Shown: positions 19,159 through 62,452, numbered from the stretch's first letter. The stretch: 64,000 nucleotides of DNA from Candidatus Flemingiibacterium sp. (GCA_045579745.1 JAZNMQ010000020.1:4108-68107); one strand, 5' to 3'. Numbers and translations: made by a program. The notes: generated from the letters alone by a model not told the origin.

Positions 19159-19210
19159 AAATGGAGCGGAAATAAAAAAGTGATGTTGTGCTATGCGGCA
19201 CAAATGAAAA

Positions 19211-41298: not shown

Positions 41299-41329
41299 GA
41301 AAACAATCAAATTTATGGAGGAAAATATT

Positions 41330-42874: not shown

Positions 42875-42887
42875 ATATGGCTTGTAT

Positions 42888-42964
<77 letters not shown>

Positions 42965-45672: not shown

Positions 45673-45948
45673 CTAATCCTCGATTATCAAATCGAATACT
45701 CCATCCTGCGAAATATCGCGAAAAACCTCAATAATCCGTTCTGCATAATCGCCGAGCATTTCCCTCGCCTTATCGATATTTTTTAGCACGATTACAGTGC
45801 CTTTTTCCACCTCTGAAAGGCAATCGGCAAGCGCATCGAGATTTTTGCCGTAGTACATCGGAAAATCGAGCGCCTGCGAAATGTATTCATGTGCTGTGGT
45901 TTTCGAGGTCATCCTTTCGCAGTCAAAAACAATTATCTTCAAGATCAT
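45673..45948 (-). CDS. barstar-family ribonuclease inhibitor
   Basis: Motif YYGKNLDALADCL. 91 aa. ATGA overlap with the upstream RNase gene. Confidence 0.8.
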   Translation of the reverse strand: MILKIIVFDCERMTSKTTAHEYISQALDFPMYYGKNLDALADCLSEVEKGTVIVLKNIDKAREMLGDYAERIIEVFRDISQDGVFDLIIED

Positions 45949-46547: not shown

Positions 46548-46761
46548 AATAAAAATCACAACCTTCGCACAGCGAGGGGTTCCTTTCCGTAGAATTGGGC
46601 TGAGCGATATACGCCTACATTTAACCGTCAGAAATTTTTAACTTTAATCTCATTTATTTTAAATGATTTCGTTTCGCTCATAACCATACTAAAAGCATTA
46701 TTCAACATGTACATTATAACCTCATTATGCGATAAATTCAAGTGCGAAATTGTAAAATCTA

Positions 46762-46790
46762 TTGCAATTTTTGTTATTATAGTGTATAAT
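46762..46790 (+). promoter_or_regulatory. sigma-A-type promoter with a ~200-nt structured leader upstream of the AraC gene
   Basis: TTGCAA 46762-46767, a 17-nt spacer, TATAAT 46785-46790. The ATG is at 46995. Confidence 0.55.
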
Positions 46791-46994
46791 TAATACAACC
46801 CTGTCAGTGTAGGGTAATCGATTGTGAAGACGGGTCTGCGGCATCTTTTATCGAAGCGGCTCAAGCCGCGCGCTTCGCTCTGCACTTCACTTCGAAGCCC
46901 GTTATACTGCCAAGTGGCACCCGAGCGTAAAAATTGAACGGTATCGCAAAAAGCTAATCATGCTATATGTCGGCTTAAGAAAAAGGTGATATAA

Positions 46995-47819
46995 ATGAAG
47001 ATGATACCAAAATTAGGGCTATCCAATTTGAACGGCGAATTTCTGACTGTAAAAAAACGAAGCGGAAGAACCTCGTTTGAACTTCATCGCCATGATTATT
47101 ATGAAATTTTGATGTACAAAAACTGCAACGGCTGTTGTATACTTAACGGTAAAGAATACGCGATGTCGGGCGACTCACTTTTTCTTCTGACGCCCAAGGA
47201 TTATCACAAGATAATCAACATCGAAAACCAATCATCATATTCGATTAATGTATCGTTTTCCGAAAATATAGTAAACAAAACCCTCTTGACTGAGCTTGGT
47301 TTCGTTCCGAGAGTTATGACGAAGCTTAGTGAGGAAACGGTTTACTGTATGGAAATGATGCTTAAATATTATACAGAAAAAAGCCGATTCAAGGATATCA
47401 AGCTTAATGGCATGCTGAGTCTTCTTATAACGAGCGTGCTTGAAAACAGTGTTCCCTCGAAGGAATCCACGGGATTTTTCAGCTCTCAAATACGTGAAAC
47501 AATGGCATACATATTATCTGATCTGACAAAATCACACAAGCTTGAGGATGTGGCAAAGATCAGCGGCTTATCGGCTCCTTATTTCTCGCATCTGTTTCAC
47601 AAGGAAACCGGAAAGCCCTACAAAAGGTGGCTGACTACGGTCAGGATCGATTATGCAAAGCGGATAATTGAGGATAAGGATGCTTCTATAATTGATATCT
47701 GTTATGAATGCGGATATAATACGCCATCCCAATTTCTGAAAATGTTCAAGCGCGAAACCTCTATGACCCCTACGGAATACAGAAAGCTGTTTGCCGAAAA
47801 AACAAATCAAAACGAATAA
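46995..47819 (+). CDS. AraC-family transcriptional regulator (cupin + HTH)
   Basis: AAAAGGTGA RBS. C-terminal HTH LEDVAKISGLSAPYFSHLFHKETG...GYNTPSQFLKMFKRETSMTPTEYRK. Confidence 0.85.
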   Translation: MKMIPKLGLSNLNGEFLTVKKRSGRTSFELHRHDYYEILMYKNCNGCCILNGKEYAMSGDSLFLLTPKDYHKIINIENQSSYSINVSFSENIVNKTLLTELGFVPRVMTKLSEETVYCMEMMLKYYTEKSRFKDIKLNGMLSLLITSVLENSVPSKESTGFFSSQIRETMAYILSDLTKSHKLEDVAKISGLSAPYFSHLFHKETGKPYKRWLTTVRIDYAKRIIEDKDASIIDICYECGYNTPSQFLKMFKRETSMTPTEYRKLFAEKTNQNE

Positions 47820-47836
47820 AATTTTTGCTTTTTTGC

Positions 47837-47865
47837 TTGACACAGAGCGTCAATTAATATATAAT
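47837..47865 (+). promoter_or_regulatory. sigma-A-type promoter of the URO-D-like/SIS/GH38 gene set
   Basis: TTGACA 47837-47842, a 17-nt spacer, TATAAT 47860-47865. Confidence 0.65.
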
Positions 47866-47904
47866 GCTTATAAATACAAACAACTAAACTTTATGGAGGC
47901 ACCC

Positions 47905-49020
47905 ATGAGCAGAATTATCACACCAAGCATCAATTTTACAGATGAACAATACGAAAATCTTCGTCAAACATACCGCAAATGGTGGGCAGGCGAGCTTGAT
48001 CGCCCGATCGTTCCGATTTCCACCTTCGGTCACGAATCCAACCGCAAACCCACAGATGCACCTTTTCTTACCACAATGAACGCGTGGGATATGTCTATCG
48101 CACCTGAGGAATTTATTGAAGCATACGACTATCATTTTTCAAAAATGCGTTGGCACGGAGATGCTTTTCCCTATGTTTCAACCACTCAGTTTGGTCCGGG
48201 CGTGCTTGCCGCATTCCTTGGCTGCAAGCCTGTAGGTGCTGAAACAACCGTTTGGTTTGAGTCCGATGTAACGGATCTCCCGATCAGCGAGCTTCATTTT
48301 GAATACGACGAAAACAACCCCTACTTCCAGCGTATCATCCGCTTCTATGAAGCTGCTATGGAAAAATGGCACGGCAATGTCGTTGTCAGCATGGTTGATA
48401 TGGGCGGTAATATGGACGTTCTTGCATGGTTCCGCAGCTCCGAGAATCTTCTTCTTGACCTCTACGACGATCCCGACGAGGTTAAGCGCTGCATAAATGA
48501 AATTCAGGACATGTGGTTCAAGTGCTTTGACCGCATTAACTCTATAATGGCTCCCGAGGCACGCGGCTATTCGCAGTGGTTCAGAACCTTCCATGAAAAG
48601 CCCGGCTATGTTCTTCAGAGCGATTTCTCATATATGATCAGTCCTGACATGTTTAAGGAATTTGTAGCTCCCGAGCTCACCTCCTCGGCAGCACGTCTTG
48701 ACCATCCGGTATACCATATGGACGGCATCGGCGAAATACCTCATCTCGATCATCTTCTCGCAATCAAGGACCTTGCAGGTATTCAATGGGTAGCAGGTGA
48801 CGGCGAGCCCTCTATGCGCAACTGGGATGAACTTCTTACCAAGATCCTTGCCTCCGGCAAAAAGCTTCTCTCATGGGGTATGGATTACACAACTAAGAAG
48901 CCAAGACATTTCGTAAAGAATCCGGGACAGCTCTTCTACGACGAGCGCACCTACAAGCTCGAATGGCTCGAGGATGCAAAGAAATTTGCCGACATCTACG
49001 GCATCGAAATTAAATTCTAA
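47905..49020 (+). CDS. URO-D/MtaA-fold-like protein (tentative), function unknown
   Basis: ORF 47791-49020, start at ATG 47905 after GGAGG. Segments FGPGVLAAFLGC, SDFSYMISPDMFKEFVAPE and VYHMDG resemble the uroporphyrinogen-decarboxylase/methyltransferase TIM-barrel family. The HxC zinc motif is absent. Confidence 0.45.
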   Translation: MSRIITPSINFTDEQYENLRQTYRKWWAGELDRPIVPISTFGHESNRKPTDAPFLTTMNAWDMSIAPEEFIEAYDYHFSKMRWHGDAFPYVSTTQFGPGVLAAFLGCKPVGAETTVWFESDVTDLPISELHFEYDENNPYFQRIIRFYEAAMEKWHGNVVVSMVDMGGNMDVLAWFRSSENLLLDLYDDPDEVKRCINEIQDMWFKCFDRINSIMAPEARGYSQWFRTFHEKPGYVLQSDFSYMISPDMFKEFVAPELTSSAARLDHPVYHMDGIGEIPHLDHLLAIKDLAGIQWVAGDGEPSMRNWDELLTKILASGKKLLSWGMDYTTKKPRHFVKNPGQLFYDERTYKLEWLEDAKKFADIYGIEIKF

Positions 49021-49076
49021 AAACATATACGCGGTGTCATCGAATCACAAAGCAGACTTTGATATACGAATCCGAT

Positions 49077-49117
49077 TGGCAACAGTGCGGATTGGGACTG
49101 CACTGTTGCCATCTTGT
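49077..49117 (+). terminator. hairpin, possible (leaky) terminator
   Basis: TGGCAACAGTGC (49077-49088) / GCACTGTTGCCA (49100-49111) followed by TCTTGTT. Confidence 0.45.
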
Positions 49118-49167
49118 TAGATCCGAAAATATTTGCTGGCTAAAATACCTTTAATCAGGAGAATCCT

Positions 49168-50214
49168 ATGAGTTTTTTAATGAATGATATTTTAATCCAA
49201 CCAAACGAGTTAAAAAAAGCACTTGAATCCTACAAGAGTGCCGAATTCCAAAAGCGTCTTGAGGCTGTAAAGGAGCTTCAGTTCAGCGAAATAATTATGA
49301 GCGGTATGGGAAGCTCCCATTTCTGCTCCTTGCCTGCAGATGTTTATCTCGCATCTCACGGGATAAGAAGCCGTGTCGTATCTGCCGGCGAGCTTTTGCA
49401 TTACGAGTATGCACGAATCAAATCCGACACTCTGCTCTGCCTTATCTCACAGTCAGGAGAGAGCGCTGAGATAGTCCGTCTTCTTGAAAAGATACCAAGC
49501 GAAACTAAAATTATCGCTATCACGAACAATCCCGAAAGCACTCTTGGCAAGCGTGGTGATATTGTTTTCAATATCAATGTGTCAAACGAGAAATCCGTTT
49601 CCACAAGAACCTATGTTTCATCCGTAATTGTGACCATGCTTATCGCGTTTATGCTTACAGGTGAGGATACAATGGCATCCTGCAAGCGTTTTGACAGTAT
49701 TCTTGACGATTTTGCAGCCTACACCGAAAACAGCGCTGAGATCACAGCTAAGCTTGACGAATTTACAAAGGGTGTAACAAGCACGAATCTCATGGGCAGA
49801 GGTTATTCAATCGGTACAGTCCGTGCATCGGCGCTCTTTCTTCGTGAAGCGGGTCGTTCCTCGGCGACAGATTTCGACAGTGCAGAGTTCCGTCACGGTC
49901 CTATGGAAATGATTGAGAACGGAGTATTTGCGGTCGTGCTCGCTCCGTGCGGCATTGGTCAGGAGCTTAATGTAAAGCTTGCGAGAGATATCACGGAAAA
50001 GGGCGGCAAGGTTCTTCTGATCACCGACAAAAACGCTTCTTCCGTTGAAGGTGACACGAATATTCTTCGCCTTGATCTTCCCGTAGTTGACGAATGTCTT
50101 GCACCTGTTCTTCAGATACTTCCCCTGCAGCTTCTCACCGACATAATGGCTGTCAGAAAAGGAAATATAGACGGCGATTTCAGATGGGGCAACAAAATCA
50201 CAGCAGTAGAATAA
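49168..50214 (+). CDS. SIS-domain sugar-phosphate isomerase/deglycase-like protein (two SIS domains)
   Basis: CLISQSGESAE (SIS SxSG motif). 348 aa, similar in organisation to AgaS/FrlB/GlmS-C proteins. Confidence 0.7.
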   Translation: MSFLMNDILIQPNELKKALESYKSAEFQKRLEAVKELQFSEIIMSGMGSSHFCSLPADVYLASHGIRSRVVSAGELLHYEYARIKSDTLLCLISQSGESAEIVRLLEKIPSETKIIAITNNPESTLGKRGDIVFNINVSNEKSVSTRTYVSSVIVTMLIAFMLTGEDTMASCKRFDSILDDFAAYTENSAEITAKLDEFTKGVTSTNLMGRGYSIGTVRASALFLREAGRSSATDFDSAEFRHGPMEMIENGVFAVVLAPCGIGQELNVKLARDITEKGGKVLLITDKNASSVEGDTNILRLDLPVVDECLAPVLQILPLQLLTDIMAVRKGNIDGDFRWGNKITAVE

Positions 50215-50245
50215 CCTACAAACAAAATTAAAGGAGATAACGCAT

Positions 50246-52618
50246 ATGCCAAACTATCATGTTATAGGTATGAGCCACATTGACCTCGGATTTACCATAA
50301 CCGAGGAGGAGCTTGACGAGCAGCTCGAAGTGTTTATAGAGCGCATTCTGTACATTCTCGACCGCGAGCCTGAGGTTACCTTCGGAATCGAGCAGATGAG
50401 TCACTACAGAAAGATCAAAAGAGATCGTCCCGACCTGTTCAAGCGCGTTAAGGAATATATTAAAGAGGGACGCATCGAGATCATGGGTGCTATGGCATCC
50501 TCGATGGAAACAAACTTCCCTTGCGGCGAATCTTTTGTTCGAAATCAGAAGCTCGGCCTTGACTGGGCAAAGGAAAATCTTGAAGCTAAGCCTGACATCG
50601 CATGGCTTGTCGATACCTTCGGCACAAACGCTCAGGTTCCGCAGATTTACAATCAGTTCGGCTTCACACAGCTCTTTGCCAACCGTTTCGGCGGCGACAA
50701 AATGCACCAGGTATTCAAGGCGAAGGGGCTTGACGGCTCTGAGCTCGTAGTTATGGGCGTTGACGGATACTCACGCAATGTCAGAAGCACTCACCTTCTA
50801 TTCAGCTTCAACCGTGCATGGAGCAATATTGAAAACATGTTCAGACAGGCTGATCGCATGAAGAGCCCCGAGCCTAAGCTCATCACAAACTATATCGAAA
50901 ACGAATTCATCATGAGCATGCTCTATATCAAGCGCACAAAGGAGCGTCAGGGCCGCGAGGGTGAAAATTGGATTCTGTCTTCGCACAAGAAATATGTTGA
51001 AGACCTCATGAGCTACACCAAGGAATTCCCCGTTCTGTTCTGCGACCTCAACCCTGAATTTACGGGAACCTTTGCGCTTCGCACGCCTATCAAGCTTGCA
51101 AACCGCAAGGCTGAGAATGCTCTGCTTGAAGCTGAAAAATGGAGTGCGCTCATCACTCCCGAGGTCAAGTCCTCCGATTTCGCTGAATCATGGTGGACAA
51201 TGGCTTTCAACCAGTTCCACGATGTATTCACCGGCTCTCACACCGACCCGACCTACAATTCGGTTCTCGAGAGATACGACGAGGTAATCACCTCCTCCGA
51301 TAAGGCAACCGCATCAGCCCTCAGCGCAATTACAAAGGCAGACGAAAACGCGGTCACCTTTACAAACTCCATGCCTTGGGAAAGAACCGAATGGATTAAG
51401 CTCCCCGAAAAGTTTGGCGGCCGCAAGCTTTTAAATGGTACTGCTGAGGTCAAGACCGCTGTTCGAGGCGATGAGGTATTCGCTCTTGTTACCATGCCTG
51501 CAGTCGGTGCAGTTACATATACAGTTGGCGACGCATGCAGCACCTGCGAGCCCGCCAAGAGCGATTCCTGCCAAATCAGCAACGAAGCTCTCACACTCAA
51601 GGTCGACAAATCAACCGGTGCAATCACACTCACTCTCGCAGACGGTACCGTTATCATCGATAACGCGATCGATTACATCACGCTTCAGGAAGATAAAGGC
51701 TCCATGCAGATTGAAAACCTTGATGGCGGCGAAGCATACGTAACGCTCGGAGAGGTTAAAGTATCCCCCGTTCTGAAGGATGCTATGGGCGAGGAAGTCA
51801 CACTTTCCGGCAAGATTCCGTACATGGCTTGGAATGGCGGCAATAACCGCTTTGAGTGGGCACTTACATTCCGCGCAAACAGCGGCGAGGCTAATATCCG
51901 ACTCCATCTTGACGTTGATTGGCTCGGTGAGGGCACTCGAATCCGCCTCAACATCCCGACCACGATTCACAACTCCGACGCTGTCTATGAGATCCCGTTC
52001 GGCGTGGTTGAAAGAACCGCTTACCGTACAAGACCTACATCTAAGGGTGAATGGCCGGCACACCGCTTTGTTGCGTTTGAGGATACAGAGAAGGGTGTTG
52101 CACTTATCAACTCGGGCGCAGCAGGCGTTGAGTTAAACGGACGCACACTTTCCACATCGCTTATCAGAGCTTACTATCCGGGTCCCGGCGCGTGGGTCAG
52201 ACCTTCCGCTTTATCCTCACAGCATGGCAAGCATTCGTATGACTTCATGCTCGTACCTTACAATGGAAGCTGGAAGAATGCAGCTGTTCTGCGCATGGCT
52301 CAGGAATTTAACAGCCCTGCACGCGCATTTGAAGCATGCGCTGTAGATGGCAGATGCACTTCCTTCGCATCTGTAGACCGCGACAATATCGTTCTTTCCA
52401 CGATCAAAGCGGCAGATGACAACAGCGGCGACCTCGTGATTCGCGTTTACGAAAGCTTCGGCGAGGCTACTACTGCAACAATCTCCATTAAGGATGCCAA
52501 GAGTGCAGTTCTTTCGAATGTTAACGAAATTATCGGCGAGGACATTTCCTGCAAGGACGGAAAGATTGCTATATCCGTTAAACCGTTCGAAATTCTCACC
52601 ATCAGAGTTAAGAGATAA
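50246..52618 (+). CDS. glycoside hydrolase family 38-like (alpha-mannosidase-type)
   Basis: AAAGGAGA RBS. N-terminus VIGMSHIDLGF (HxD metal motif) and WLVDTFG. 790 aa. Confidence 0.6.
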   Translation: MPNYHVIGMSHIDLGFTITEEELDEQLEVFIERILYILDREPEVTFGIEQMSHYRKIKRDRPDLFKRVKEYIKEGRIEIMGAMASSMETNFPCGESFVRNQKLGLDWAKENLEAKPDIAWLVDTFGTNAQVPQIYNQFGFTQLFANRFGGDKMHQVFKAKGLDGSELVVMGVDGYSRNVRSTHLLFSFNRAWSNIENMFRQADRMKSPEPKLITNYIENEFIMSMLYIKRTKERQGREGENWILSSHKKYVEDLMSYTKEFPVLFCDLNPEFTGTFALRTPIKLANRKAENALLEAEKWSALITPEVKSSDFAESWWTMAFNQFHDVFTGSHTDPTYNSVLERYDEVITSSDKATASALSAITKADENAVTFTNSMPWERTEWIKLPEKFGGRKLLNGTAEVKTAVRGDEVFALVTMPAVGAVTYTVGDACSTCEPAKSDSCQISNEALTLKVDKSTGAITLTLADGTVIIDNAIDYITLQEDKGSMQIENLDGGEAYVTLGEVKVSPVLKDAMGEEVTLSGKIPYMAWNGGNNRFEWALTFRANSGEANIRLHLDVDWLGEGTRIRLNIPTTIHNSDAVYEIPFGVVERTAYRTRPTSKGEWPAHRFVAFEDTEKGVALINSGAAGVELNGRTLSTSLIRAYYPGPGAWVRPSALSSQHGKHSYDFMLVPYNGSWKNAAVLRMAQEFNSPARAFEACAVDGRCTSFASVDRDNIVLSTIKAADDNSGDLVIRVYESFGEATTATISIKDAKSAVLSNVNEIIGEDISCKDGKIAISVKPFEILTIRVKR

Positions 52619-52686
52619 TTTATAGTATTATGGCTGATAGTACAGCAACACTATCAGCCATAACTTCAAAAAACGGAGAACACGCT

Positions 52687-53916
52687 ATGTCACAAAAAGG
52701 CGAACTTTATGAGCTTGCAAGCCGAGTTATGGAGCTTGCAACCTCTGACGAAATGAACGAAAAGCGTCGTCTTTGGAGATGTTCAAACAGCTTCAAGGGA
52801 GATGCTCCGCTAATATATCTTCGCGCATTTGCATTCGATGAAAACTTTTCAAGCTCGGTATTAAAATGCACCGACCCAATGCTTCGCGGAGTTGAAAAAT
52901 CGCTTCATCAGGCAATCTATCGCGCGACTCTCGGCGACGATTTCATTATTGAGCCGTGGTATAAAATCGACGCGAGCTACACGACTTCAAATTCCATGCG
53001 ATGGGGTGTTCGTGTCGGTCTTGGCGAGAAAACTCAGTCGAACGGCGCGGCAGGCTATGCACCCATTCTGAACGATGAGGATTTCTCATGCCTCAAGCCC
53101 GCTTCGTACGAAGTTGACGAGAAAAGCACTGACCTCAGATATGAACAGCTAATGGAAGCTTTCGGCGGAGCTTTGCCCGTTTTCGTTTCACGTCAAGGGC
53201 AATTTACTATGTGGTGCGACGACATCTCCACCGATATTGCAAAAATGCGCGGACTTGAACAGCTCATGTGGGATGTTTACGACAATCCCGATTGGCTCCA
53301 CAGTCTGTTGGCTTTTATGCGCGACGCTATTCTCGAGAACCACCGTCAAGCGGAAGCGGCAGGCGGATTCTCACTCGCAGACCACGAAAATCAGTGCATG
53401 ACTTATGCCGAGGAGCTCGATGACCCCAATCCGAATGTTAAGGGAGTTTCACGAACGCAGTTATGGCGATTCAATGCGGCGCAGGAATATACCGGCTTCA
53501 GTCCGGAAATGTTCTGGGAATTTATTTTGCAGTATCAACAGCCAATCCTCGAGCAGTTCGGTATGAGTGCATACGGATGCTGTGAAAATCTCACGGGAGT
53601 TATACCGTACCTTCGCCGAATAAAGAATTTGCGCAGAATTGCAGTTTCGCCCTTTGCAGATGCAAAAAAGTGCGCGGAGCAGATTGGAAGCGACTACATT
53701 TTGTCATGGCGTCCGAACCCATCTTTGATGGTTGCAACAGGGCTTGACGAGGATTTCGTCAGAAAATATATGCGCGAGCACTTTGAGATTTTCAAGGCAA
53801 ACAACAACCATTTTGACATCACGCTGAAGGATGTTGAAACTGTCAGCCATCATCCTGAAAATGTGAAGCGTTGGACTGAAATCGTCCGCGAGGAAATCGT
53901 TAACTTCTACTCTTAA
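52687..53916 (+). CDS. second URO-D/MtaA-fold-like protein (tentative), function unknown
   Basis: ORF 52630-53916, start at ATG 52687 after GGAGAA. Segments FSPEMFWEFILQYQQP, YGCCEN and RIAVSPFAD are arranged as in URO-D-like TIM barrels. Confidence 0.4.
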   Translation: MSQKGELYELASRVMELATSDEMNEKRRLWRCSNSFKGDAPLIYLRAFAFDENFSSSVLKCTDPMLRGVEKSLHQAIYRATLGDDFIIEPWYKIDASYTTSNSMRWGVRVGLGEKTQSNGAAGYAPILNDEDFSCLKPASYEVDEKSTDLRYEQLMEAFGGALPVFVSRQGQFTMWCDDISTDIAKMRGLEQLMWDVYDNPDWLHSLLAFMRDAILENHRQAEAAGGFSLADHENQCMTYAEELDDPNPNVKGVSRTQLWRFNAAQEYTGFSPEMFWEFILQYQQPILEQFGMSAYGCCENLTGVIPYLRRIKNLRRIAVSPFADAKKCAEQIGSDYILSWRPNPSLMVATGLDEDFVRKYMREHFEIFKANNNHFDITLKDVETVSHHPENVKRWTEIVREEIVNFYS

Positions 53917-53939
53917 CACAAAAGAAAGGGACAACCACA

Positions 53940-55958
53940 ATGTTGAAAGAATGTTATGCAAGCTTTGATGCTGCAAGCGGAAGACTCACACTGGGTAACA
54001 GCCGCATAGAAAAAACAATGATCATCAAGGGCAGCTTTATTCGCACCGAAAAGGTAGAGGATAAATCAAGCTCGGTTAAATGGAATGGCGGCAAGCCCTT
54101 GTGGCAGCGCTGCCCTGTTCTCGGAGTTCAGGAATCTCCCGAAATCCGCTTTGAAGCCATTGAATGTGACGCTCCTCTTGCGATGAAGCCTCACCTCAAG
54201 GTATCACTTGAGCTTGCCGGAAACAGCGGTACCGCATGGTATGAATACATAATCTTCCCGAATATCCCGTTCATATACAGCCAAATAAGCATAGAAAAGA
54301 AGGGCGAGCTCGAGCTTGGTCTTTCACAATCCGATTTCAAGCAGAGTACAGGTGTCGAAACCGGTGCAGATAAGGTTTCTCAAAATGACATAATTTGCGA
54401 TTCCAATACCCTCGACTGCATTCCGCTCCGCTTTTCTCACCTCGAGGTTGAATCCTTCAACCTCTATGACAAAACCGATAACAACGATATGCTCGTTGAG
54501 CGTTCTACCTTCCCCATCTACAAGAGAGGCGTGACCGAACGCGAGGGCAATATCTTCAAAATCAACGATTACGCAACCGAAAACACGCTGATGATAATAA
54601 AGCATTCGCCTACTCACAGCTCTGAGCTTAACAGAAGCGGCAAGGATATCGTATTCCCGAACGCGGCATACGCGCTCCTCAGAGGAACAGGCGTTGACTT
54701 CAACGACATTCCCGAGGGCAAGGTTCCCTATTATGCATCGGCTATCGGCGTTTCGAAGACAGCTGATATCTCCGATGAATATTGGCGTTACAGCACAGCA
54801 TTCTCAACCGGCGATGACCGCGGTGCACTCTTTATCATGTCAAACACCTGGGGCGACCGCAGTCAGGATATGGCTATCTCCGAGGAATTTATCATGAAGG
54901 AGCTCGACCGTGCGAAGGAGCTCGGCGTTGACATTCTCCAGATCGACGACGGTTGGATGTCCGGTATCACCGCTAACTCCCTCCGCAAAAAAGGCGGTGC
55001 ATGGGGTAACTACTACGCATACGACAGCAATTTCTGGGACGTTGACCCCGAGCGTTTCCCGAACGACCTCTATCCTGTTATCAACAAGGCAAAGGAATAC
55101 GGCATCGAGATCGGTCTTTGGTTTGGTCCCGACTCGTCAAACGATTTCGCGAATGTCGAAAAGGACATCGAGATTCTTATGGATCTGTACAAGAAGTACG
55201 GTGTCAGATACTTCAAGTTTGACGGTGTGGGCATCAGCTCCAAAAAAGGCGAAATGGGCTTCATCTACATGATGAAGAAGCTGACCGAGCTTACAAACGG
55301 CGATATGCGATTCAATCTCGACGTAACCGCAGGCGACCGTTTCGGATACCTCTATCACACGCAGTACGGCACTCTGTTCGTAGAAAACAGATACACCGAC
55401 TGGGGCAACTACTTCCCGCACAACACATTCAAGAACCTGTGGCATCTTGCGTCCATTGTTCCTACAAGACGTCTTCAGATGGAGCTTCTCAACAACAAGC
55501 GCAATATTGACAAGTATTTTGATCTTAAGTATGCGCCCTCGCAATATGGCATGGACTACATCTTTGCAGTCACAATGCCCGCGAATCCGCTTGTCTGGAT
55601 GGAAATGACTCACCTTGAAGATGCCGATGTAAAGGTTCTTTCAAGAATTACCGATGCATACAAGCCGTTCAAGGCAGAGCTTTTTAGCTCACAGGTAATT
55701 CCGATAGGCGATGCTCCGAGCGGAAAGAGCTTCTCAGGGTATCTTTGCAGAAGTGAGGACAAAAAATCAGGACACATCATCCTTTTCCGCGAAACCACCG
55801 AGGCAGATACTTACACCTTCAAGCTTCCGCTTGACATCAGTAGTGCCGAAATTGAGGTGATTTACGACAGCGCATCCGCAGAGATCTCCAAAACTGCCGA
55901 CGGCGTTACCGTAAAATTCTCAGAACCAAGATCTTTCGTTTGGGCAAAGGTAAAATAA
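53940..55958 (+). CDS. alpha-galactosidase-like glycoside hydrolase (GH36/clan D-like)
   Basis: SNTWGDRSQD...LGVDILQIDDGW (DDGW catalytic region), KFDG. 672 aa. Confidence 0.55.
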   Translation: MLKECYASFDAASGRLTLGNSRIEKTMIIKGSFIRTEKVEDKSSSVKWNGGKPLWQRCPVLGVQESPEIRFEAIECDAPLAMKPHLKVSLELAGNSGTAWYEYIIFPNIPFIYSQISIEKKGELELGLSQSDFKQSTGVETGADKVSQNDIICDSNTLDCIPLRFSHLEVESFNLYDKTDNNDMLVERSTFPIYKRGVTEREGNIFKINDYATENTLMIIKHSPTHSSELNRSGKDIVFPNAAYALLRGTGVDFNDIPEGKVPYYASAIGVSKTADISDEYWRYSTAFSTGDDRGALFIMSNTWGDRSQDMAISEEFIMKELDRAKELGVDILQIDDGWMSGITANSLRKKGGAWGNYYAYDSNFWDVDPERFPNDLYPVINKAKEYGIEIGLWFGPDSSNDFANVEKDIEILMDLYKKYGVRYFKFDGVGISSKKGEMGFIYMMKKLTELTNGDMRFNLDVTAGDRFGYLYHTQYGTLFVENRYTDWGNYFPHNTFKNLWHLASIVPTRRLQMELLNNKRNIDKYFDLKYAPSQYGMDYIFAVTMPANPLVWMEMTHLEDADVKVLSRITDAYKPFKAELFSSQVIPIGDAPSGKSFSGYLCRSEDKKSGHIILFRETTEADTYTFKLPLDISSAEIEVIYDSASAEISKTADGVTVKFSEPRSFVWAKVK

Positions 55959-55963
55959 AAATC

Positions 55964-55997
55964 AGGAGCTGCTGCATTAAGTGCAACAGCTCCTTTT
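55964..55997. terminator. bidirectional terminator between convergent GH genes
   Basis: AGGAGCTG..TGCA / TGCA..CAGCTCCT hairpin followed by TTTT. Confidence 0.7.
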
Positions 55998-56002
55998 CTT
56001 AT

Positions 56003-57292
56003 TTACTTTCGTAATATTACAACTGCATCCATGCCTCGTCCTGCTCCGCGGTCAACAAATGATATCAGATCGCCTTCAAGCTTAACATTCGTCTTTGAAT
56101 ATTCACCGCTTGTAGGCTCAAACATCTCGACCTCGGCAGGCACAAAGCCCAAAGCCTCGAGATTCAGCCTTGTGGGAAGTCCGAACGGACAGTATATATA
56201 CGCGCTGTCAGCTCCAACCATCGCCGCAGTGTAGTTTGCATCGTGTGCATTGCCAATGACCGCATCCTCGCACGGAACATGAGCTGTGAGGTCATTTCGG
56301 GAGATAAAATCGGCAAAATATCTTATCTCACATGCCGCAGGGCGATTGAGTGCGGTTTTCCAGACGTTCGGGAAATATGAGCCCGGGCAGTCGCAAAAGC
56401 CCCAAACGCTGTGATGACCGTAAGTATTGCCTGCGCTTCCGGCAAAAAGATTACGATACATTGTAACGCGAACATCGCACGCGTCAAAATAGCCCCTTCG
56501 AGGGTCAAAGCTTTTCGGATGGTCCTCGTAGCATTGCTCGCCGTCCATAGTCGGGCGCGTCGGCTTCATATTATAATCCTTTGCGATGAGCTCGTAGCTT
56601 GTCGGAGTACACGGCTCATTATGCCCCGACTGCATCATGTTGAAATCGAGCCATGAGCGGTCGTTTAAATAGTGCGAGGAGGAAACGCATTGGTCGGGAT
56701 GAAATGTAATCAGGAATTTGCCATTGTCGCCCTCTCTGAGGCCTCGCGCCATCTCATCAATTATCGCGTAATGCCTGTCCTCATCAAGCGCGCGGTCGCC
56801 GCCGAGGATCCAAATTATATTGTCGTGGTGCCTGAGCATCTCAGCAAGCCATTTGCCATATACATATGCGTTTTCGGGAGTAAATATCTCGGGGCCCTTT
56901 CCGGTCTTAATGTTGAATTTATCTCCCCATGATGGGAGAACACCGACATACAGACCAAGCTCCTCAGCAATTTTTATTATCGCTTCAACATGGGAAAAGT
57001 AGCTGTAATCGCCACCAAGGTCGGGAAGCGTGGGAGAGTATTGTCCGTCTGCATCCGTCTTAAGTGGGAGCCGACCATATACATTCGGCACGCGAAGCCC
57101 ATCTGCCTCGGATAGAATTACCGCCTGAACAAGGTTAAAGCCTTGTGATTTTCTTGTTTTGAGATAAAGCGTGGCATCTTCAATGCTCGTTCTGTGAAAC
57201 AAGCCCCATGCAGTATCGCCTATCAGATATACATTTTCTCCCGCCGATGTGACAAATCGACGCTTATCCTCAGAAATTTGAAGTGTTTTCAT
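56003..57292 (-). CDS. DUF4038 / glycoside hydrolase family 140-like protein
   Basis: The N-terminus RRFVTSAGENVYLIGDTAWGLFHR and the overall TIM-barrel pattern are typical of DUF4038 (GH140) proteins. Confidence 0.65.
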   Translation of the reverse strand: MKTLQISEDKRRFVTSAGENVYLIGDTAWGLFHRTSIEDATLYLKTRKSQGFNLVQAVILSEADGLRVPNVYGRLPLKTDADGQYSPTLPDLGGDYSYFSHVEAIIKIAEELGLYVGVLPSWGDKFNIKTGKGPEIFTPENAYVYGKWLAEMLRHHDNIIWILGGDRALDEDRHYAIIDEMARGLREGDNGKFLITFHPDQCVSSSHYLNDRSWLDFNMMQSGHNEPCTPTSYELIAKDYNMKPTRPTMDGEQCYEDHPKSFDPRRGYFDACDVRVTMYRNLFAGSAGNTYGHHSVWGFCDCPGSYFPNVWKTALNRPAACEIRYFADFISRNDLTAHVPCEDAVIGNAHDANYTAAMVGADSAYIYCPFGLPTRLNLEALGFVPAEVEMFEPTSGEYSKTNVKLEGDLISFVDRGAGRGMDAVVILRK

Positions 57293-57537
57293 AACAAAAA
57301 TACCTATTCCCTTTGCAGAAATTTTCTCTCACTGTTTTGGTGTGAATTTTTTCTTTCTGTAATTAGAATAGCATTTTACGCAAAGGATGTCAAGCGATTT
57401 TTTGAAAAAATTATGTGGTTTTGTTTCCTGAGTTTACAAAAAAGAAAGAACACCATATTTACTTATTAATATTTATTTGCTATAATGAATCCAAGATTGG
57501 TGTTCTGTGTGAAAATAGTTTTTATAGGCATCTTTTG

Positions 57538-58497
57538 ATGATGGAAAGCGGTGCGAAAATGTCGAGCGACTTAAATAAAGCCAATCGTTTGACGAAGGCT
57601 GTGCTTCTAAAGGATAATCCTATATATCAGAATGTTTGTGCTTGTCATGACATCTACTCCCCCGAGCTTGCATCGGAAAGACTGAAGACTCACGACATTT
57701 TCGAGATAAGCATAGTTACTTCGGGAAGCGGCATCCATTGTATTCAAAATCAGGCGATCCCTTGCAGCGAAGGCGATATCTACATAGTAAGCGGCGATAT
57801 CCCTCATATGTACTTTTTGTCAGAGGACGGCGGTGAACTTGTTGTTCGTCACCTGTACTTTGATATCAAGGACTGGTTTGACGGTGATATAGTTTATTCA
57901 GGAAGTGTTCGCTATTGCTACGGGGTATTTTCGGACAACGCCCTGACAGCATATGCTATGCTGACCTCGCAGACACTTGCTGAAATCAACAGCCTTTGCC
58001 ATGAAATCGAAAAAGAGCTCGATGAGAGAAAAATTGAGTGGAACGAAGCTGTCAGAGCGCATCTTTCGATGATACTCATTAAGCTCGGCCGATATGTTAA
58101 AGGAGCAATTAAAAACGAGCCTTCACCCAATCACAAGGAATGGTCAATAGTTTCAACCGCAATGAACACTGTAATGGACCATTTCGCGGAATGCGAGCTG
58201 ACGCTTGAATCGATCGCCGAGAGCATGTTTATCAGCAAATCGCATCTCAGCAGACTTTTCAAACGCCTGACAGGCAGGTCATTCACGGATTATCTTCGCG
58301 GTATACGGCTTGAGCACGCCTGCCATCTTTTGGAGGATACTGACCTTAACATCGAGGAAATCGTTAAGCAATGCGGGCTTCGCGATATTCCCTCATTCTA
58401 TCGTTCGTTCGGCGAAAAAATGAATATGACGCCGAACTGCTACCGCAAAACACAAAAATCGAAATCCAAAAATATTTTTTATAAAGGAGAAACAACA
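57538..58497 (+). CDS. AraC-family regulator module (cupin + HTH) with no stop codon; reads in frame into the corrinoid protein
   Basis: Part of ORF 57415-59133. Start is ATG 57538, 57541 or 57559. HTH LESIAESMFISKSHLSRLFKRLTG...GLRDIPSFYRSFGEKMNMTPNCYRK. There is no in-frame stop before 59131. Confidence 0.7.
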
Positions 58498-59133
58498 ATG
58501 AGCATTTTAACCGAAATTTCCGAGAATCTTCAGAAGGGTAAAGCTAAGATCGTTAAAGAGCTTGTACAGCAGGCACTTGACGAGGGCGTAAAGGCTTCTG
58601 ACATTCTTAACGATGGCCTTCTCGCAGGTATGGGCGTAATCGGCGAAAAGTTTAAAAACAACGAAGTTTATGTTCCTGAAGTTCTCGTTGCAGCAAGAGC
58701 TATGAACATGGGTACTCAGGTACTTAAGCCCCACCTCGCTGAGAGCGGTGTTGAGGCTGCAGGTAAGGTTTGCATCGGTACTGTACAGGGCGACCTCCAC
58801 GATATCGGTAAGAACCTTGTTAAGATGATGATGGAAGGTAAGGGTCTTGAGGTTGTTGACCTCGGAACTGACGTTTCCGCTGAAGCTTTTGTTAATACCG
58901 CTATTGAGCAGAACTGCCAGATCATCTGCTGCTCCGCACTTCTCACCACAACCATGGGCGTTATGGAAGAGGTTGTTAAGCTTGCAACCGAGAAGGGCAT
59001 CCGCGACAAGGTTAAGATCATGATCGGCGGCGCTCCCACAACAACCGAGTTCTGCCAGAAGATCGGTGCTGACTGCTACACTGCTGACGCTGCAAGTGCT
59101 GCTGACGCTGCTATTGCTCTCTGCAAGGCATAA
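58498..59133 (+). CDS. cobalamin-binding corrinoid protein (MtaC/MtbC/MtqC-like)
   Basis: Internal ATG 58498 is preceded by AAAGGAGA (58483-58490). B12-binding_2 cap helix bundle plus the Rossmann domain motif GTVQGDLHDIGKN (DxHxxG). 211 aa, the normal size for this family. Confidence 0.85.
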   Translation: MSILTEISENLQKGKAKIVKELVQQALDEGVKASDILNDGLLAGMGVIGEKFKNNEVYVPEVLVAARAMNMGTQVLKPHLAESGVEAAGKVCIGTVQGDLHDIGKNLVKMMMEGKGLEVVDLGTDVSAEAFVNTAIEQNCQIICCSALLTTTMGVMEEVVKLATEKGIRDKVKIMIGGAPTTTEFCQKIGADCYTADAASAADAAIALCKA

Positions 59134-59167
59134 TTTCTCTATAATTTAATTAAAGGAATACTAACTG

Positions 59168-60172
59168 ATGAAACGTAACATGAGACAGTGGATAGCCGAG
59201 CTTCGCGAGTCGAAGAAGGCGCTTCCCGTTCTTTCCTTCCCCTGCGTAAGCCTCCTCGGCATCACCGTTAGCGAGCTCATCTCGAGCAGCGACCGTCAGG
59301 CAGAGGGTATGCGCATGGTTGCCGAAAAGGTTGATTCTGCTGCATCCGTTAGCCTTATGGACCTTTCTGTTGAAGCTGAGTGCTTCGGTGCTACTCCGCG
59401 TTTTTCTGACAGCGAGGTTCCCACTATCGTCGGCAGACTTATTCACGACGAGGATGAGGCCAAGGCACTTGAGGTTCCCAAGGTCGGTGCGTGCCGTTCA
59501 GGTCTGTATGTTGACGCCATTCGCAAGGCTGTAAAACTCATCGAGGATCGCCCTGTTCTTGCAGGTATCATCGGTCCCTTCTCCCTCGCAGCAAGACTTC
59601 TTGATGTATCTGAAATTATGATGGATTGCTATGATGAACCGGATATGGTACATATCGTTCTCGAAAAAGCTACCGAATTCCTCATCGAATACGCCAAGGC
59701 GTACAAGGAAGCAGGTGCTAACGGCATCGTTATGGCTGAACCGGTTGCGGGACTTCTCTCCCCTGCTCTTGAGGCTGAATTCTCTGCTCCTTATGTAAAG
59801 AAGATAGTTGACGCTGTTCAGGACGATGAGTTCGTTCTCATCTACCACAACTGCGGCGACAATACACCTTTAATGGTTGACTCCATTCTTTCGACAGGCT
59901 CTGCTGCTTATCACTTCGGTAACGCTATCAATATGCGTGAGATGATGGAAAAGCTTCCGTCCGATGTCGTTGCTATGGGTAATGTAGACCCCGCAGGTGT
60001 TCTTCGCATGGGCAACCCCGAAACTGTACGAAAGGCTACCCTCGATGTTATGGGCGATTGCTGCAAGTTTGATAACTTCGTTATCTCCTCAGGCTGCGAC
60101 ATTCCTCCTATGACTCCGTGGGAGAATATTGACGCGTTCTTTAGCGCAGTAAACGAGTATTATGGAAAATAA
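59168..60172 (+). CDS. MtaA/CmuA-family (URO-D superfamily) methylcorrinoid methyltransferase
   Basis: 334 aa. Zinc-ligand pattern IYHNCGD ... SSGCDIPP. GIIGPFSLAARL. Confidence 0.8.
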   Translation: MKRNMRQWIAELRESKKALPVLSFPCVSLLGITVSELISSSDRQAEGMRMVAEKVDSAASVSLMDLSVEAECFGATPRFSDSEVPTIVGRLIHDEDEAKALEVPKVGACRSGLYVDAIRKAVKLIEDRPVLAGIIGPFSLAARLLDVSEIMMDCYDEPDMVHIVLEKATEFLIEYAKAYKEAGANGIVMAEPVAGLLSPALEAEFSAPYVKKIVDAVQDDEFVLIYHNCGDNTPLMVDSILSTGSAAYHFGNAINMREMMEKLPSDVVAMGNVDPAGVLRMGNPETVRKATLDVMGDCCKFDNFVISSGCDIPPMTPWENIDAFFSAVNEYYGK

Positions 60173-60719
60173 AGAAATTTTCGATAAGCTTTGCGCCAAG
60201 GCTATTGAGCTCGGCGCATCCAATGTAGGTATTGTTGATGTTGACAAGATTGAAACAGACGCGGTTTTCCGTGAAATGTGCGCATCCAACGCTTGCGGAG
60301 TTTACGGCAAATGCTGGACTTGTCCTCCTGATATAGGTGATATTCATGAGCTTATGGCAAAGGTGAAATCCTTTGATTATGCGCTTGTTTATCAGACTAT
60401 AAGCGACCTTGAAGACAGCTACGACTTTGAGGGCATGATGGAGGCAGGCAGCCGCCATAACAAGCTTGACTGTGCTCTCAGGGAAAGCGTCAGAGCGATG
60501 GAGCTTACCAAGGTGCTTCACCTCGGAGCAGGCGGATGCAGAGTTTGCGAGGTTTGCGCAAAGCGCACAAACGAGCCCTGCAGATTCCCGGAGCTTGCAA
60601 TGTCTTCACTTGAAGCTCATGGCATAAACGTGTCTAAGCTTGCGGCTCTTGCCGGAATGAAGTACATCAACGGAACAGATACCGTAACCTACTTCGGCAC
60701 GGTATTCTTCTCTGTGTAA
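60162..60719 (+). CDS. DUF2284-like metal-binding protein
   Basis: 11-nt overlap with the upstream gene. Motifs CWTCPP and GGCRVCEVC. Confidence 0.65.
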   Translation: MENKEIFDKLCAKAIELGASNVGIVDVDKIETDAVFREMCASNACGVYGKCWTCPPDIGDIHELMAKVKSFDYALVYQTISDLEDSYDFEGMMEAGSRHNKLDCALRESVRAMELTKVLHLGAGGCRVCEVCAKRTNEPCRFPELAMSSLEAHGINVSKLAALAGMKYINGTDTVTYFGTVFFSV

Positions 60720-60797
60720 AACAGAGAAGCGTAAAATACCATCTCGCATTACTATAAAGATATTCACGCCTCGGATGTATAATAATTCGGGGCGTGA

Positions 60798-60876
60798 TTT
60801 AAGGCAGTACCACAAAATTCACGGCTGACGCCTTTATGGCGCATCTGGACTATCGGAATCATGCGGTACTGCCTTA
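60798..60876 (+). repeat. copy B of the ~80-nt structured intergenic element
   Basis: TTAAGGCAGTACCACAAAATTCACGGCTGACGCCTTTATGGCGCATCTGGACTATCGGAATCATGCGGTACTGCCTTAA. The terminal 13-nt arms TTAAGGCAGTACC / GGTACTGCCTTAA are perfectly complementary. Confidence 0.75.
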
Positions 60877-60901
60877 AATTAAAAACAAATGGAGATTTTT
60901 T

Positions 60902-62410
60902 ATGGAAAACAACCATAAAACAGCTTTAGTAACCGTCAACGGCAATGCTGTGGAAGCCACGCTCGGAAGCAAGCTTTCCTCGGTGCTTGAAATAGCTATG
61001 CCATGCGGCGGTCATGGAAAATGCGGAAAATGCAAGGTAATCGCAAGCGGTCACCTTTCCGAAATCAGCGATAGTGAGCGCAAATATCTGACAGCAGATG
61101 AGCTTGCAAAGGGTGTCAGACTCGCTTGCTCTGCTTATATCGAGGGCGACTGCACAGTTTCAACCGATACCAAGGCAGTGCACAGTCAGATTGTAACCGA
61201 CGGTCACATGCCGCTCATTTCTCTCAAACCGATTTTCGCAAAATACGGCGTGGCAATTGATATAGGCACGACGACGCTTGCCGCGCGCCTTTTCGATACA
61301 AACGCCAATGTGCTTTCACATGTGAGCCGGCTCAATCCGCAGTCGATTTGGGGAGCGGATGTCATTTCGCGTATTGAAGCGTCTATGCGCGGAGAATCCG
61401 AAAAAATGGCTCAGGTCATTTGCTCTGCACTTGATGAGCTTATCGTCGAGCTTGCAAGCAACGCCTTGATAGACGCGCAAGATGTTGACGGTATTGTAAT
61501 AACCGGTAACACCTGCATGCTTTATCTGCTGACCAATACCTCCACTGAGCCTCTTTCGCACGCTCCGTTTGCGGCAAGCAGATTATTCGGCGAAACTCTT
61601 GGTGCATCTGAGGTAGGATTAAAATCCGTACCTTCACAGACAACAGTTTATCTTCCGTCCTGCATTTCAGCATTTGTCGGTGCAGATACAACCTGTGCGC
61701 TTCTCGCAACACAAACCTGCGAATCCGACGATACCAATCTGATGGTCGATATCGGAACCAACGGCGAAATGGGACTTTGGCATGACGGTAAGCTTTATGT
61801 ATGCTCGACGGCGGCAGGCCCCGCATTCGAGGGAGTCGGAATATCTATGGGCATGGGTGGCTCAACGGGAGCAATCGACCGTGTTAAGGTTGTGAACGGA
61901 GAAATATCCGCACATGTTATCGGCGATACAGAGCCACGCGGAATATGCGGAAGCGGACTTGTTGACGCAGTTGCCGCCTTGTTAAAGCTTGAAATACTCG
62001 ACGAATCTGGCTTTCTTGAGGACGACGAGGCAGTTATTGCCGCTCCGGTAGTGCTCGAGCAGCAGGATATTCGCATGGTTCAGCTTGCAAAAAGTGCGAT
62101 CTGTGCGGGTATTAAGACTCTGCTCAAATCAGCCAAGCTCGATTCCGACAAAATCAAAGCAATGTATGTTGCAGGAGGCTTCGGAAGCTACCTTGATATG
62201 CACAGCGCAGGTGAGATAGGACTTATTCCGAGCGAGCTTGAGGAGCGCATCGATGTTGTCGGAAATGCGGCATTAAGCGGTGCGGCGATGCTTCTTTTAA
62301 ACTCCGATTTGCGTAAACTCTGCGAGAAAATGGCGAGGGACGCAATCGTTTTGGAGCTTTCCTCAAATCCCGTATTTGCAGATGAATATATGACGGGCAT
62401 GCTGTTTTAA
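60902..62410 (+). CDS. reductive activator of corrinoid enzymes (RACE/RamA-like; 2Fe-2S ferredoxin + ASKHA ATPase, DUF4445)
   Basis: N-terminal plant-type ferredoxin motif CGGHGKCGKCKV. ASKHA phosphate motifs GVAIDIGTTT and LMVDIGTNGE. Confidence 0.8.
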   Translation: MENNHKTALVTVNGNAVEATLGSKLSSVLEIAMPCGGHGKCGKCKVIASGHLSEISDSERKYLTADELAKGVRLACSAYIEGDCTVSTDTKAVHSQIVTDGHMPLISLKPIFAKYGVAIDIGTTTLAARLFDTNANVLSHVSRLNPQSIWGADVISRIEASMRGESEKMAQVICSALDELIVELASNALIDAQDVDGIVITGNTCMLYLLTNTSTEPLSHAPFAASRLFGETLGASEVGLKSVPSQTTVYLPSCISAFVGADTTCALLATQTCESDDTNLMVDIGTNGEMGLWHDGKLYVCSTAAGPAFEGVGISMGMGGSTGAIDRVKVVNGEISAHVIGDTEPRGICGSGLVDAVAALLKLEILDESGFLEDDEAVIAAPVVLEQQDIRMVQLAKSAICAGIKTLLKSAKLDSDKIKAMYVAGGFGSYLDMHSAGEIGLIPSELEERIDVVGNAALSGAAMLLLNSDLRKLCEKMARDAIVLELSSNPVFADEYMTGMLF

Positions 62411-62430
62411 TTATATTTATTAATCGAAAA

Positions 62431-62452
62431 AGGGCTAAACACAGCCCTTTTT
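62431..62452 (+). terminator. intrinsic terminator after the activase gene
   Basis: AGGGCT / AGCCCT hairpin followed by TTTT. Confidence 0.65.

Follow-up and report, generated by a model that had tools for sequence, protein, structure and literature searches.

A corrinoid methyltransferase operon lies beside the genes of several glycoside hydrolases (GH) in a 64,000-nucleotide stretch of DNA from Candidatus Flemingiibacterium sp. (GCA_045579745.1 JAZNMQ010000020.1:4108-68107), called the window in what follows. This locus raises the question of whether the two sets of genes work together, the corrinoid proteins taking up methyl groups from the carbohydrates on which the hydrolases act. An earlier note on this DNA had described positions 46762-62452 as a complete module of this kind and a candidate system for the anaerobic demethylation of O-methyl sugars. 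All the genes that it listed were recovered where it had placed them, and the answer proposed here is a more qualified one. The corrinoid carrier of the operon is fused in frame to an AraC-family regulator, and two proteins of hypothetical families, named here unkA and unkB, are candidates for the substrate-specific methyltransferases (MT1) of a shuttle for carbohydrate-derived methyl groups. The relatives of the window are metagenome-assembled genomes (MAGs) of Clostridia/Oscillospiraceae from ruminant guts; fetched loci are designated below by the letter L and a number.

A regulator fused to the corrinoid carrier

Genes of the window were called from a listing of open reading frames (ORFs) combined with Pfam and NCBIfam scans, and promoters and hairpins come from a pattern scan. 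The corrinoid operon comprises the following features.

57458-57486, + strand: promoter-like site with an extended -10, before the AraC::corrinoid gene
57538-59133, + strand: AraC::corrinoid fusion, 531 aa (AraC_binding/cupin, HTH_18, B12-binding_2 and B12-binding domains)
58483-58500, + strand: nested Shine-Dalgarno sequence AAAGGAG (58483-58489) and ATG (58498-58500), within the fusion ORF
58498-59133, + strand: predicted free corrinoid carrier, 211 aa, from the nested start
59168-60172, + strand: MtaA/CmuA-type URO-D methyltransferase, candidate second methyltransferase (MT2) (Pfam 1e-54; H227-N-C229 and C310)
60162-60719, + strand: DUF2284, Cys-rich predicted metal-binding protein (Pfam), overlapping the MtaA-like gene by 11 nt
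60902-62410, + strand: RACo-type reductive activase with 2Fe-2S, middle and ASKHA domains (Pfam/NCBIfam)
62427-62452, + strand: terminator-like hairpin with a T tail, at the end of the corrinoid operon

The corrinoid protein had previously been read as a separate gene at 58498-59133. Its GDLHDIGKN motif is present as described, but the sequence is in frame with the second AraC regulator of the locus, and the two form one ORF (57415/57538-59133) with no intervening stop codon. The corrinoid module matches PF02310 (1.7e-25) and PF02607 (2.2e-19) and combines a DxHxxG Rossmann domain with a helical cap; the NCBIfam models MtgC, pyl_corrinoid and MtbC match it below their cut-offs. The full architecture is common to more than 120 database homologues of 505-540 aa, with 57-66% identity. 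A frameshift or sequencing error at the T6 run 58475-58480, where a slip of +1 or -1 leads to a stop codon, was considered as the source of the fusion and rejected, because these homologues are open in frame and because L005 is likewise open with a different junction DNA. A literature search found no paper on AraC::B12 fusions, and this one is apparently a widespread, undescribed type of regulator, whatever the substrate of the operon. A metagenome scan with the fusion alignment relied on corrinoid-domain patterns and retrieved mostly generic carriers; it provides no measure of the frequency of the fusion and was used as a background set, from which L083, L086, L095 and L122 originate.

The junction between the two parts of the protein codes for K-G-E-x-x-M, and the corresponding DNA, AAAGGAGA, is followed 6-8 nt downstream by an ATG. 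The window, L005, L162 and L164 share this motif without any change; in L166 it is replaced by GAGGAGA. Among 32 aligned homologues, the G-[E/D] pair that encodes the Shine-Dalgarno sequence and the Met/Val position occur together in 29 and are jointly lost in the other three. The loci of two of these three were looked up. In L176 the order is fusion, separate 211-aa corrinoid protein, MtaA-like, URO-D, DUF2284 and RACo, and in L177 it is fusion, unkB-like, separate 211-aa corrinoid protein, MtaA-like, DUF2284 and RACo (L176 10001-16585; L177 10001-16675). The separate carrier of these operons is 77-85% identical to the fused domain, and the five loci endowed with the nested ATG (window, L005, L162, L164 and L166) have no second carrier gene. 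On the basis of this sequence pattern, the nested start at 58498 probably yields a free 211-aa carrier in addition to the fusion. We infer that the system cannot do without a free carrier, because a separate gene for it exists where the nested ATG is absent. The tethered copy may then serve another purpose, of which sensing is the simplest.

The fusion can be placed with respect to a known gene order. A PocR-AraC gene adjoins an unfused carrier in L084, L086, L088 and L095. The methanol system MtaABC of Eubacterium limosum likewise has a regulator, MtaR, of the PocR-AraC type (PMC13602510). Since relatives with an unfused carrier have PocR-AraC beside it, as MtaR is, the fusion would be a derived form of this regulator-first layout.

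Two observations concern neighboring or comparable architectures. A gene for an FAD-dependent oxidoreductase of about 600 aa adjoins both the L176 and L177 operons. In environmental contigs, a URO-D-type domain and a corrinoid-binding module are joined in single ORFs of 583-631 aa (L103 2943-4703; L110 6159-7910; L114 2871-4766; L148 8864-10636), and each of them adjoins a divergent or convergent MetH-N-like gene.

The conserved core of the operon

The remainder of the operon largely agrees with what had been reported. The HxC...C pattern of the MtaA/CmuA-type methyltransferase corresponds to H227-N-C229 and C310, which are invariant in relatives; the protein retains a thiol/zinc-type site. 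The 11-nt overlap of the DUF2284 gene and the extent of the RACo gene were both confirmed with Pfam. The latter encodes Fer2, Raco_middle (3.1e-40) and RACo_C_ter (5.2e-66) domains, the composition of a reductive activase. Across corrinoid operons the MtaA-like gene is kept with 58-73% identity and the carrier with 70-82%. Calling this module complete was nevertheless an overstatement, as the operon holds one canonical methyltransferase, the MtaA-type Zn enzyme, and no pterin-binding MT2.

DUF2284 may contribute to activation, as an alternative component or as an auxiliary one; the literature search found no paper on its function. It is not always accompanied by RACo: L162 (9804-12442) has DUF2284 only, within the 10 kb fetched, and the L164 operon (10001-14817) has RACo without DUF2284.

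Two divergent proteins among the glycoside hydrolases

Upstream of the corrinoid operon, the locus contains the following features.

46762-46790, + strand: promoter-like site upstream of araC1 (10/12 consensus match)
46995-47819, + strand: araC1, AraC-family regulator with cupin-type AraC_binding and HTH_18 domains (Pfam)
47837-47865, + strand: sigma-70 promoter, TTGACA-17-TATAAT (12/12), before unkA
47905-49020, + strand: unkA, divergent URO-D/MtaA-fold protein, 371 aa, candidate MT1
49077-49111, + strand: stem-loop 3' of unkA, 14 bp, terminator-like with a weak T tail
49168-50214, + strand: double-SIS sugar-phosphate isomerase/deaminase-like protein, resembling the C-terminal half of GlmS (two SIS stretches in Pfam; NCBIfam)
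50246-52618, + strand: GH38 alpha-mannosidase-family protein with four GH38 domains, without signal peptide (Pfam)
52687-53916, + strand: unkB, divergent URO-D/MtaA-fold protein, 409 aa, alternative start 52630, candidate MT1
53940-55958, + strand: GH36-like protein (Melibiase), very divergent (weak Pfam match, 30.2 bits against a cut-off of 27)
55964-55994, no strand assigned: terminator-like hairpin between the convergent GH36-like and GH140 genes
56003-57292, - strand: GH140, apiosidase-like, DUF4038 (Pfam 4.9e-92; PDB 8t9w 1.4e-80)

The promoter at 47837-47865 is a perfect consensus, as had been claimed, but it precedes unkA only and not the hydrolase genes: unkA is followed by the hairpin at 49077-49111, and the SIS-GH38-unkB-GH36 genes appear to constitute a separate unit. 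Judging from these signals, the most likely transcription units are araC1; unkA; SIS-GH38-unkB-GH36; GH140; and the corrinoid operon. The GH140 gene is convergent to the SIS-GH38-unkB-GH36 genes and divergent from the corrinoid operon. No riboswitch, for cobalamin or otherwise, was found in the window, and no gene of the 46.7-62.5 kb region matches the MtaB, MttB or MtmB families in Pfam/NCBIfam, in agreement with the earlier statement that these MT1 types are missing.

The occurrence of a corrinoid module amid glycoside hydrolases is not limited to this genome. The block formed by SIS, GH38, unkB, GH36, GH140 and the AraC::corrinoid gene is syntenic in a second genome, the closest relative (L169), with 69% nucleotide identity, and this arrangement is therefore not a chance juxtaposition.

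Neither unkA nor unkB reaches a Pfam or NCBIfam threshold, and sequence searches of the PDB with single sequences or with family profiles gave nothing significant. The families, annotated as hypothetical, comprise at least 1126 (unkA) and at least 2217 (unkB) clusters. Their assignment to the URO-D fold, proposed earlier from the sequence, is borne out at the level of structure and not by PF01208, whose gathering threshold of 23.9 bits is missed by both unkA (E 0.29, 10.5 bits) and unkB (E 0.0098, 15.4 bits). Weak or sub-threshold URO-D matches were obtained for about 40% of family members, 14 of 36 for unkA and 17 of 38 for unkB, the best being 1.7e-5 and 3.1e-6, respectively. AlphaFold2 models built from the family alignments have a pLDDT of 95.1 (unkA) and 92.9 (unkB); in Foldseek both retrieve first the MtaA of M. 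mazei (4ay8/4ay7, E 1e-8 and 2e-5), then URO-D decarboxylases, with TM-scores of 0.5-0.6. These predictions, the only searches that placed the fold, confirm unkA and unkB as remote URO-D/MtaA-fold proteins with a modelled (beta/alpha)8 barrel. With hhalign against the profile of the operon's MtaA-like proteins, the probability is 92% for unkB and 50% for unkA.

The HxC motif had been noted as missing from both proteins, and it is. Where the MtaA-like protein has Y-H-N-C-G, the unkA family has an invariant Y-H-M-D-G and the unkB family an invariant Y-G-C-C-E. To judge from these residues, some metal site may persist, though not the canonical one.

Relatives of unkA and unkB with and without corrinoid genes

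At least seven other loci have a homologous corrinoid operon with a relative of one of these two families in it: L005, L162, L095 and L122 for unkA, and L083, L086 and L177 for unkB. In L005, an unkA orthologue (62% identity) comes immediately after RACo and is flanked by three more URO-D-like genes; an unkA-like gene follows DUF2284 in L162/L163 and the carrier in L095. As for unkB-like genes, one overlaps the start of the carrier in L083, another lies between the MtaA-like gene and DUF2284 in L086, and a third between the fusion and the carrier in L177. Other URO-D genes are the variable member of the corrinoid operons of L166 and L176. In known O-demethylase systems, MT2 together with substrate-specific MT1 shows up as a conserved core plus a variable paralogue. 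A variable URO-D-like gene beside a conserved set of carrier, MtaA-like, DUF2284 and RACo genes is therefore the pattern expected of a substrate-specific MT1. The MT1 role proposed earlier for unkA and unkB thus gains a basis in gene neighborhood, the only one on which their candidacy stands.

Several points weigh against it and against the shuttle as a whole. The unkA and unkB genes of the window are, according to the pattern scan, in units apart from the corrinoid operon, each with its own AraC gene. The canonical H-x-C...C zinc site is missing from both proteins, and no counterpart of the second Cys was found. Of 29 unkA-family loci flanked by 5 kb or more on each side, a carrier or RACo gene is nearby in one, leaving 28 without corrinoid neighbors, and the same absence holds for all three unkB orthologue contexts (0/3). 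In a Capsulimonadaceae MAG (L050 8128-11089, on a 713-kb contig), an O2-dependent dioxygenase gene of the PhyH type (Fe/2-oxoglutarate) is followed by an unkA homologue in one operon, downstream of a divergent AraC gene; because of this pairing, the unkA family is not obviously tied to anaerobic corrinoid chemistry. A transporter and a pterin-binding MT2 are both absent from the 46.7-62.5 kb region. Finally, the sensory role of the fused corrinoid domain is purely inferential.

The main rival explanation is that the operon and the hydrolases are independent neighbors. The substrates of the operon would then be methyl donors other than sugars, for instance methoxylated phenolics of plants (lignans, flavonoids, ferulate-type compounds), like those of the known bacterial O-demethylases. 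The substrate-side step would fall to the MtaA-like protein or to an MT1 whose gene lies elsewhere, and unkA and unkB would be URO-D-fold enzymes that process sugars independently of corrinoid, perhaps as a decarboxylase or an isomerase, and that simply occupy the same carbohydrate loci as the operon. In addition to the separate units with their own regulators, the rarity of corrinoid neighbors and the oxygenase pairing in an aerobic lineage, this explanation draws on the GDSL esterase, GH28, GH95 and GH36 genes that accompany unkA without B12 proteins, on the recurrence of GFO/IDH/MocA sugar oxidoreductase genes beside unkB-family genes, and on the fact that the founding member of the URO-D family is a cofactor-free decarboxylase. 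It accounts poorly, however, for the relatives of both families in at least seven independent corrinoid loci, where they often overlap carrier, DUF2284 or RACo genes, and for the linkage kept in L169. Moreover, such operons adjoin sugar-type ABC transporters and mutarotase-like genes and not aromatic-acid genes, and flavonoids are usually deglycosylated by families other than GH38, GH36, GH140, GH10 and GH30. On balance, independent neighbors appear unlikely, though more probable than the other alternatives considered below.

The GFO/IDH/MocA genes beside unkB-family genes are also encountered near corrinoid operons (L168 802-3063; L170 11745-12965; L174 8002-11227; L176 2605-3672; L177 5047-7655). 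In L174, two of them lie immediately upstream of the unkB orthologue, in the same orientation.

Carbohydrate context and the methyl donor

The surroundings of the homologous operons provide the next indication. Sugar-type ABC transporters of the CUT1 or CUT2 class adjoin the carrier gene in L166, L095 and L122: in L166 the transporter is directly upstream of the fusion, and in L095 SBP_bac_1/8 and permease genes follow the unkA-like gene. In L122 the order is a monosaccharide-type transporter (Peripla_BP_4/BPD_transp_2), the carrier, three URO-D genes, genes for mutarotase-like DUF4432/DUF5107 proteins, an unkA-like gene and a short MetE-like gene. Genes of carbohydrate metabolism are also found in L083 (an AraA/FucI-like isomerase), L162 (NAGLU) and L164 (RhaA, GH43 and GH4). 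The closest relative carries two unkA orthologues (77% and 73%) between two GH10 genes and one GH30 gene, a GH10/GH10/unkA/unkA/GH30 locus headed by an orthologue of araC1 (65% identity). GH10 and GH30 are xylan-degrading families, and glucuronoxylan bears 4-O-methyl-glucuronate. Taken together, the operon contexts point to carbohydrates over aromatics. L122 further holds, within 446-18594, a phosphotriesterase-family protein and a DUF5107-TPR giant.

Methyl-etherified sugars such as 2-O-Me-fucose, 2-O-Me-xylose, 4-O-Me-glucuronate, 6-O-Me-galactose and 3-O-Me-mannose are common in dietary and forage glycans, and to our knowledge the only described sugar demethylase requires O2. The literature search found no paper on corrinoid-dependent or anaerobic sugar demethylation. 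O-methyl sugars are the leading candidate for the donor, followed by sugar methyl esters, and the demethylation of O-methyl sugars by this locus is plausible but unproven.

A connection with rhamnogalacturonan II (RG-II), suggested earlier from the GH140 gene, did not hold. A dedicated RG-II degradation locus was rejected: GH140 is the sole RG-II-associated family present, and none of the others (GH137, 138, 139, 141, 143, 95, 106, 127, 78 and others) occurs in the locus, which leaves the RG-II argument weak. GH95, GH28 and GH78 are confined to other loci, near some of the unkA orthologues.

The most common neighbors of the unkA orthologues, GDSL esterases, GH28, GH95 and GH36, raise the possibility of a different donor. 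Carbohydrate methyl esters, such as methyl-esterified galacturonate or glucuronate, or the methanol released from them, could supply the methyl group in place of sugar methyl ethers. GDSL esterases rank first among these neighbors, with 7 of 134 neighbor ORFs, and a GDSL gene is located inside the L164 corrinoid operon; GH28 and pectate-lyase-fold proteins are further neighbors of unkA orthologues. From a chemical standpoint, attack by Co(I) displaces a carboxylate far more readily than a sugar alkoxide, and sugar methyl esters should be the easier targets. On the other hand, pectin methylesterase, pectate lyase and MtaB are all absent from the locus of the window, and GDSL esterases more often cleave acetyl esters. 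The sequence data do not tell ester donors from ether donors, and esters or methanol in place of ethers are considered improbable.

The acceptor side

The only pterin-binding domain found lies 23 kb upstream. The earlier note had missed the gene that encodes it, as it had missed the AraC::corrinoid fusion.

32417-34141, - strand: N-terminal half of MetH, 574 aa, outside the main locus (homocysteine S-methyltransferase and pterin-binding domains, no B12 domain)

This protein aligns end to end with residues 1-566 of T. maritima MetH and has neither a B12-binding nor an activation domain; because the B12 domain is missing, it needs a corrinoid partner in trans. From its co-residence in the window, it could accept a methyl group from the carrier and pass it to homocysteine or tetrahydrofolate.

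The same gene allows for a third explanation, that of a split methionine synthase combined with B12 sensing. The free carrier and RACo would serve the MetH half, the AraC::corrinoid fusion would be a cobalamin-availability sensor, CarH-like in its logic, and the glycoside hydrolase setting would be incidental. Beyond the presence of the MetH half in the window, homocysteine-methyltransferase, MetH-N-like or pterin-binding genes adjoin carriers or URO-D::carrier fusions in many environmental loci, and L122 contains a core-MetE-like gene. Nevertheless, the MetH half is 23 kb away, none of the fetched loci with a carrier of 70% or more identity to that of the window contains it, and a methionine synthase accounts neither for the MtaA-like gene of the operon, which is conserved, nor for the URO-D-like genes, which vary. 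For these reasons, this explanation is given a very small chance.

Proposed mechanism

The interpretation preferred here, a carbohydrate-linked corrinoid methyl shuttle with MT1 enzymes of the unkA/unkB type and a corrinoid-sensing AraC regulator, is put forward at a little less than even chances. The corrinoid operon would shuttle methyl groups from a donor of carbohydrate origin. As substrate-specific MT1 enzymes, unkA- and unkB-family proteins would pass the methyl group to Co(I) on the 211-aa carrier, in the free form that begins at the nested ATG (58498). Methyl-Co(III) would then be unloaded by the conserved MtaA-like enzyme onto tetrahydrofolate or a thiol, with sites for pterin and homocysteine available in trans on the B12-less MetH half (32417-34141). 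Co(II) would be re-reduced by RACo, alone or together with DUF2284. The corrinoid domain tethered to AraC would be a sensor and not a working carrier, reporting the state of its cofactor (methylated or not, holo or apo); this signal, relayed to the DNA-binding domain, would control transcription, that of the operon and perhaps also that of the GH140 gene divergent from it. The stronger proposal, in which unkA and unkB are the first O2-independent corrinoid demethylases of O-methyl sugars or methyl esters, accompanied by an AraC regulator that reads its own corrinoid and by a carrier made from a nested start, is rather doubtful.

Such a pathway, if it exists, would allow methyl groups from plant and algal glycans to enter one-carbon or methionine metabolism in gut Clostridia. 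Should unkA and unkB prove to be corrinoid MT1 enzymes, two large hypothetical families would gain a function, and glycan breakdown would be tied to B12 demand and one-carbon flux in the Clostridia of ruminant and human guts. The nested-start or duplicated-carrier layout makes the reuse of a catalytic cofactor as a sensor directly testable.

Other genes in the window and in related loci

The locus is flanked by a gene for a barnase-like ribonuclease with an N-terminal hydrophobic segment (45945-46559, - strand). The barnase-like gene of a relative is paired with a barstar gene (L168 3085-3908), and a small ORF is present in the window at 45673-45948. Three unrelated loci (window 41297-42709; L001 17931-19385; L083 6058-7533) contain genes of the ADP-ribosylglycohydrolase family, encoding 470-490 aa, in the vicinity of unkA, unkB or corrinoid genes. 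Large ORFs without Pfam match are located at 3527-6415 (- strand, 962 aa) in the window and at 16152-19271 (1039 aa) in L166, the latter directly downstream of the corrinoid operon. A GH9 cellulase with a CelD_N domain is encoded at 138-2714 (+ strand). The window also has three tRNA genes, at 42800-42964 (- strand) and 20078-20150 (- strand).

Comparison with known systems

The closest functional parallels are the O-demethylases Odm of Acetobacterium and Desulfitobacterium and Mtv of Moorella, three- or four-component systems made up of MT1, a corrinoid protein, MT2 and an activating enzyme. The locus shares with them a stand-alone carrier with DxHxxG and cap, an ATP-dependent activator of the RACo type, methyltransferases of the URO-D fold, and a conserved core accompanied by variable paralogous enzymes, putatively on the substrate side. 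It differs in that the candidate MT1 proteins of the window score too low for Pfam URO-D and show changes at the metal site, a pterin-binding MT2 is lacking from the operon, the carrier is fused to a regulator and DUF2284 is an extra conserved component. The setting is also distinct, with glycoside hydrolases in the window and sugar transporters in the loci of relatives in place of aromatic metabolism.

With respect to sugar demethylation, a P450 from marine Bacteroidota demethylates 6-O-methyl-D-galactose in an O2-dependent reaction that needs redox partners. If the donor is an O-methyl sugar, the two systems would have in common the removal of a sugar methyl ether and the location in a glycan-degradation locus; unlike the marine system, the window has no P450.

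The regulator can be compared with two others. As in MtaABC/MtaR, an AraC-family regulator comes first in a corrinoid methyltransferase operon and an MtaA-type enzyme would unload the carrier, but the regulator of the window has a cupin-type AraC_binding domain instead of PocR and a covalent corrinoid domain, and MtaB is missing. Like CarH/LitR, it joins a B12-binding domain to a DNA-binding domain, and the CarH model of NCBIfam gives a weak match of 1.8e-06 (27.5 bits against a cut-off of 400). Unlike in CarH/LitR, the DNA-binding domain is of the AraC type (HTH_18) and not MerR-type, and the fused module closely resembles a catalytic methyl carrier encoded alongside, to the extent measured above in L176/L177. 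Because the operon encodes a methyltransferase and a reductive activase, sensing of the methyl or redox state is favored over adenosylcobalamin photochemistry. The CmuA-type URO-D::corrinoid fusions also attach a corrinoid module to another domain of the pathway, the partner being a methyltransferase there and a transcription factor here. The locus is set apart from known systems by four departures, on none of which the literature search found a paper: MT1 candidate families that had gone unrecognized, a carbohydrate context, a conserved DUF2284 protein and the fusion of the carrier to its regulator.

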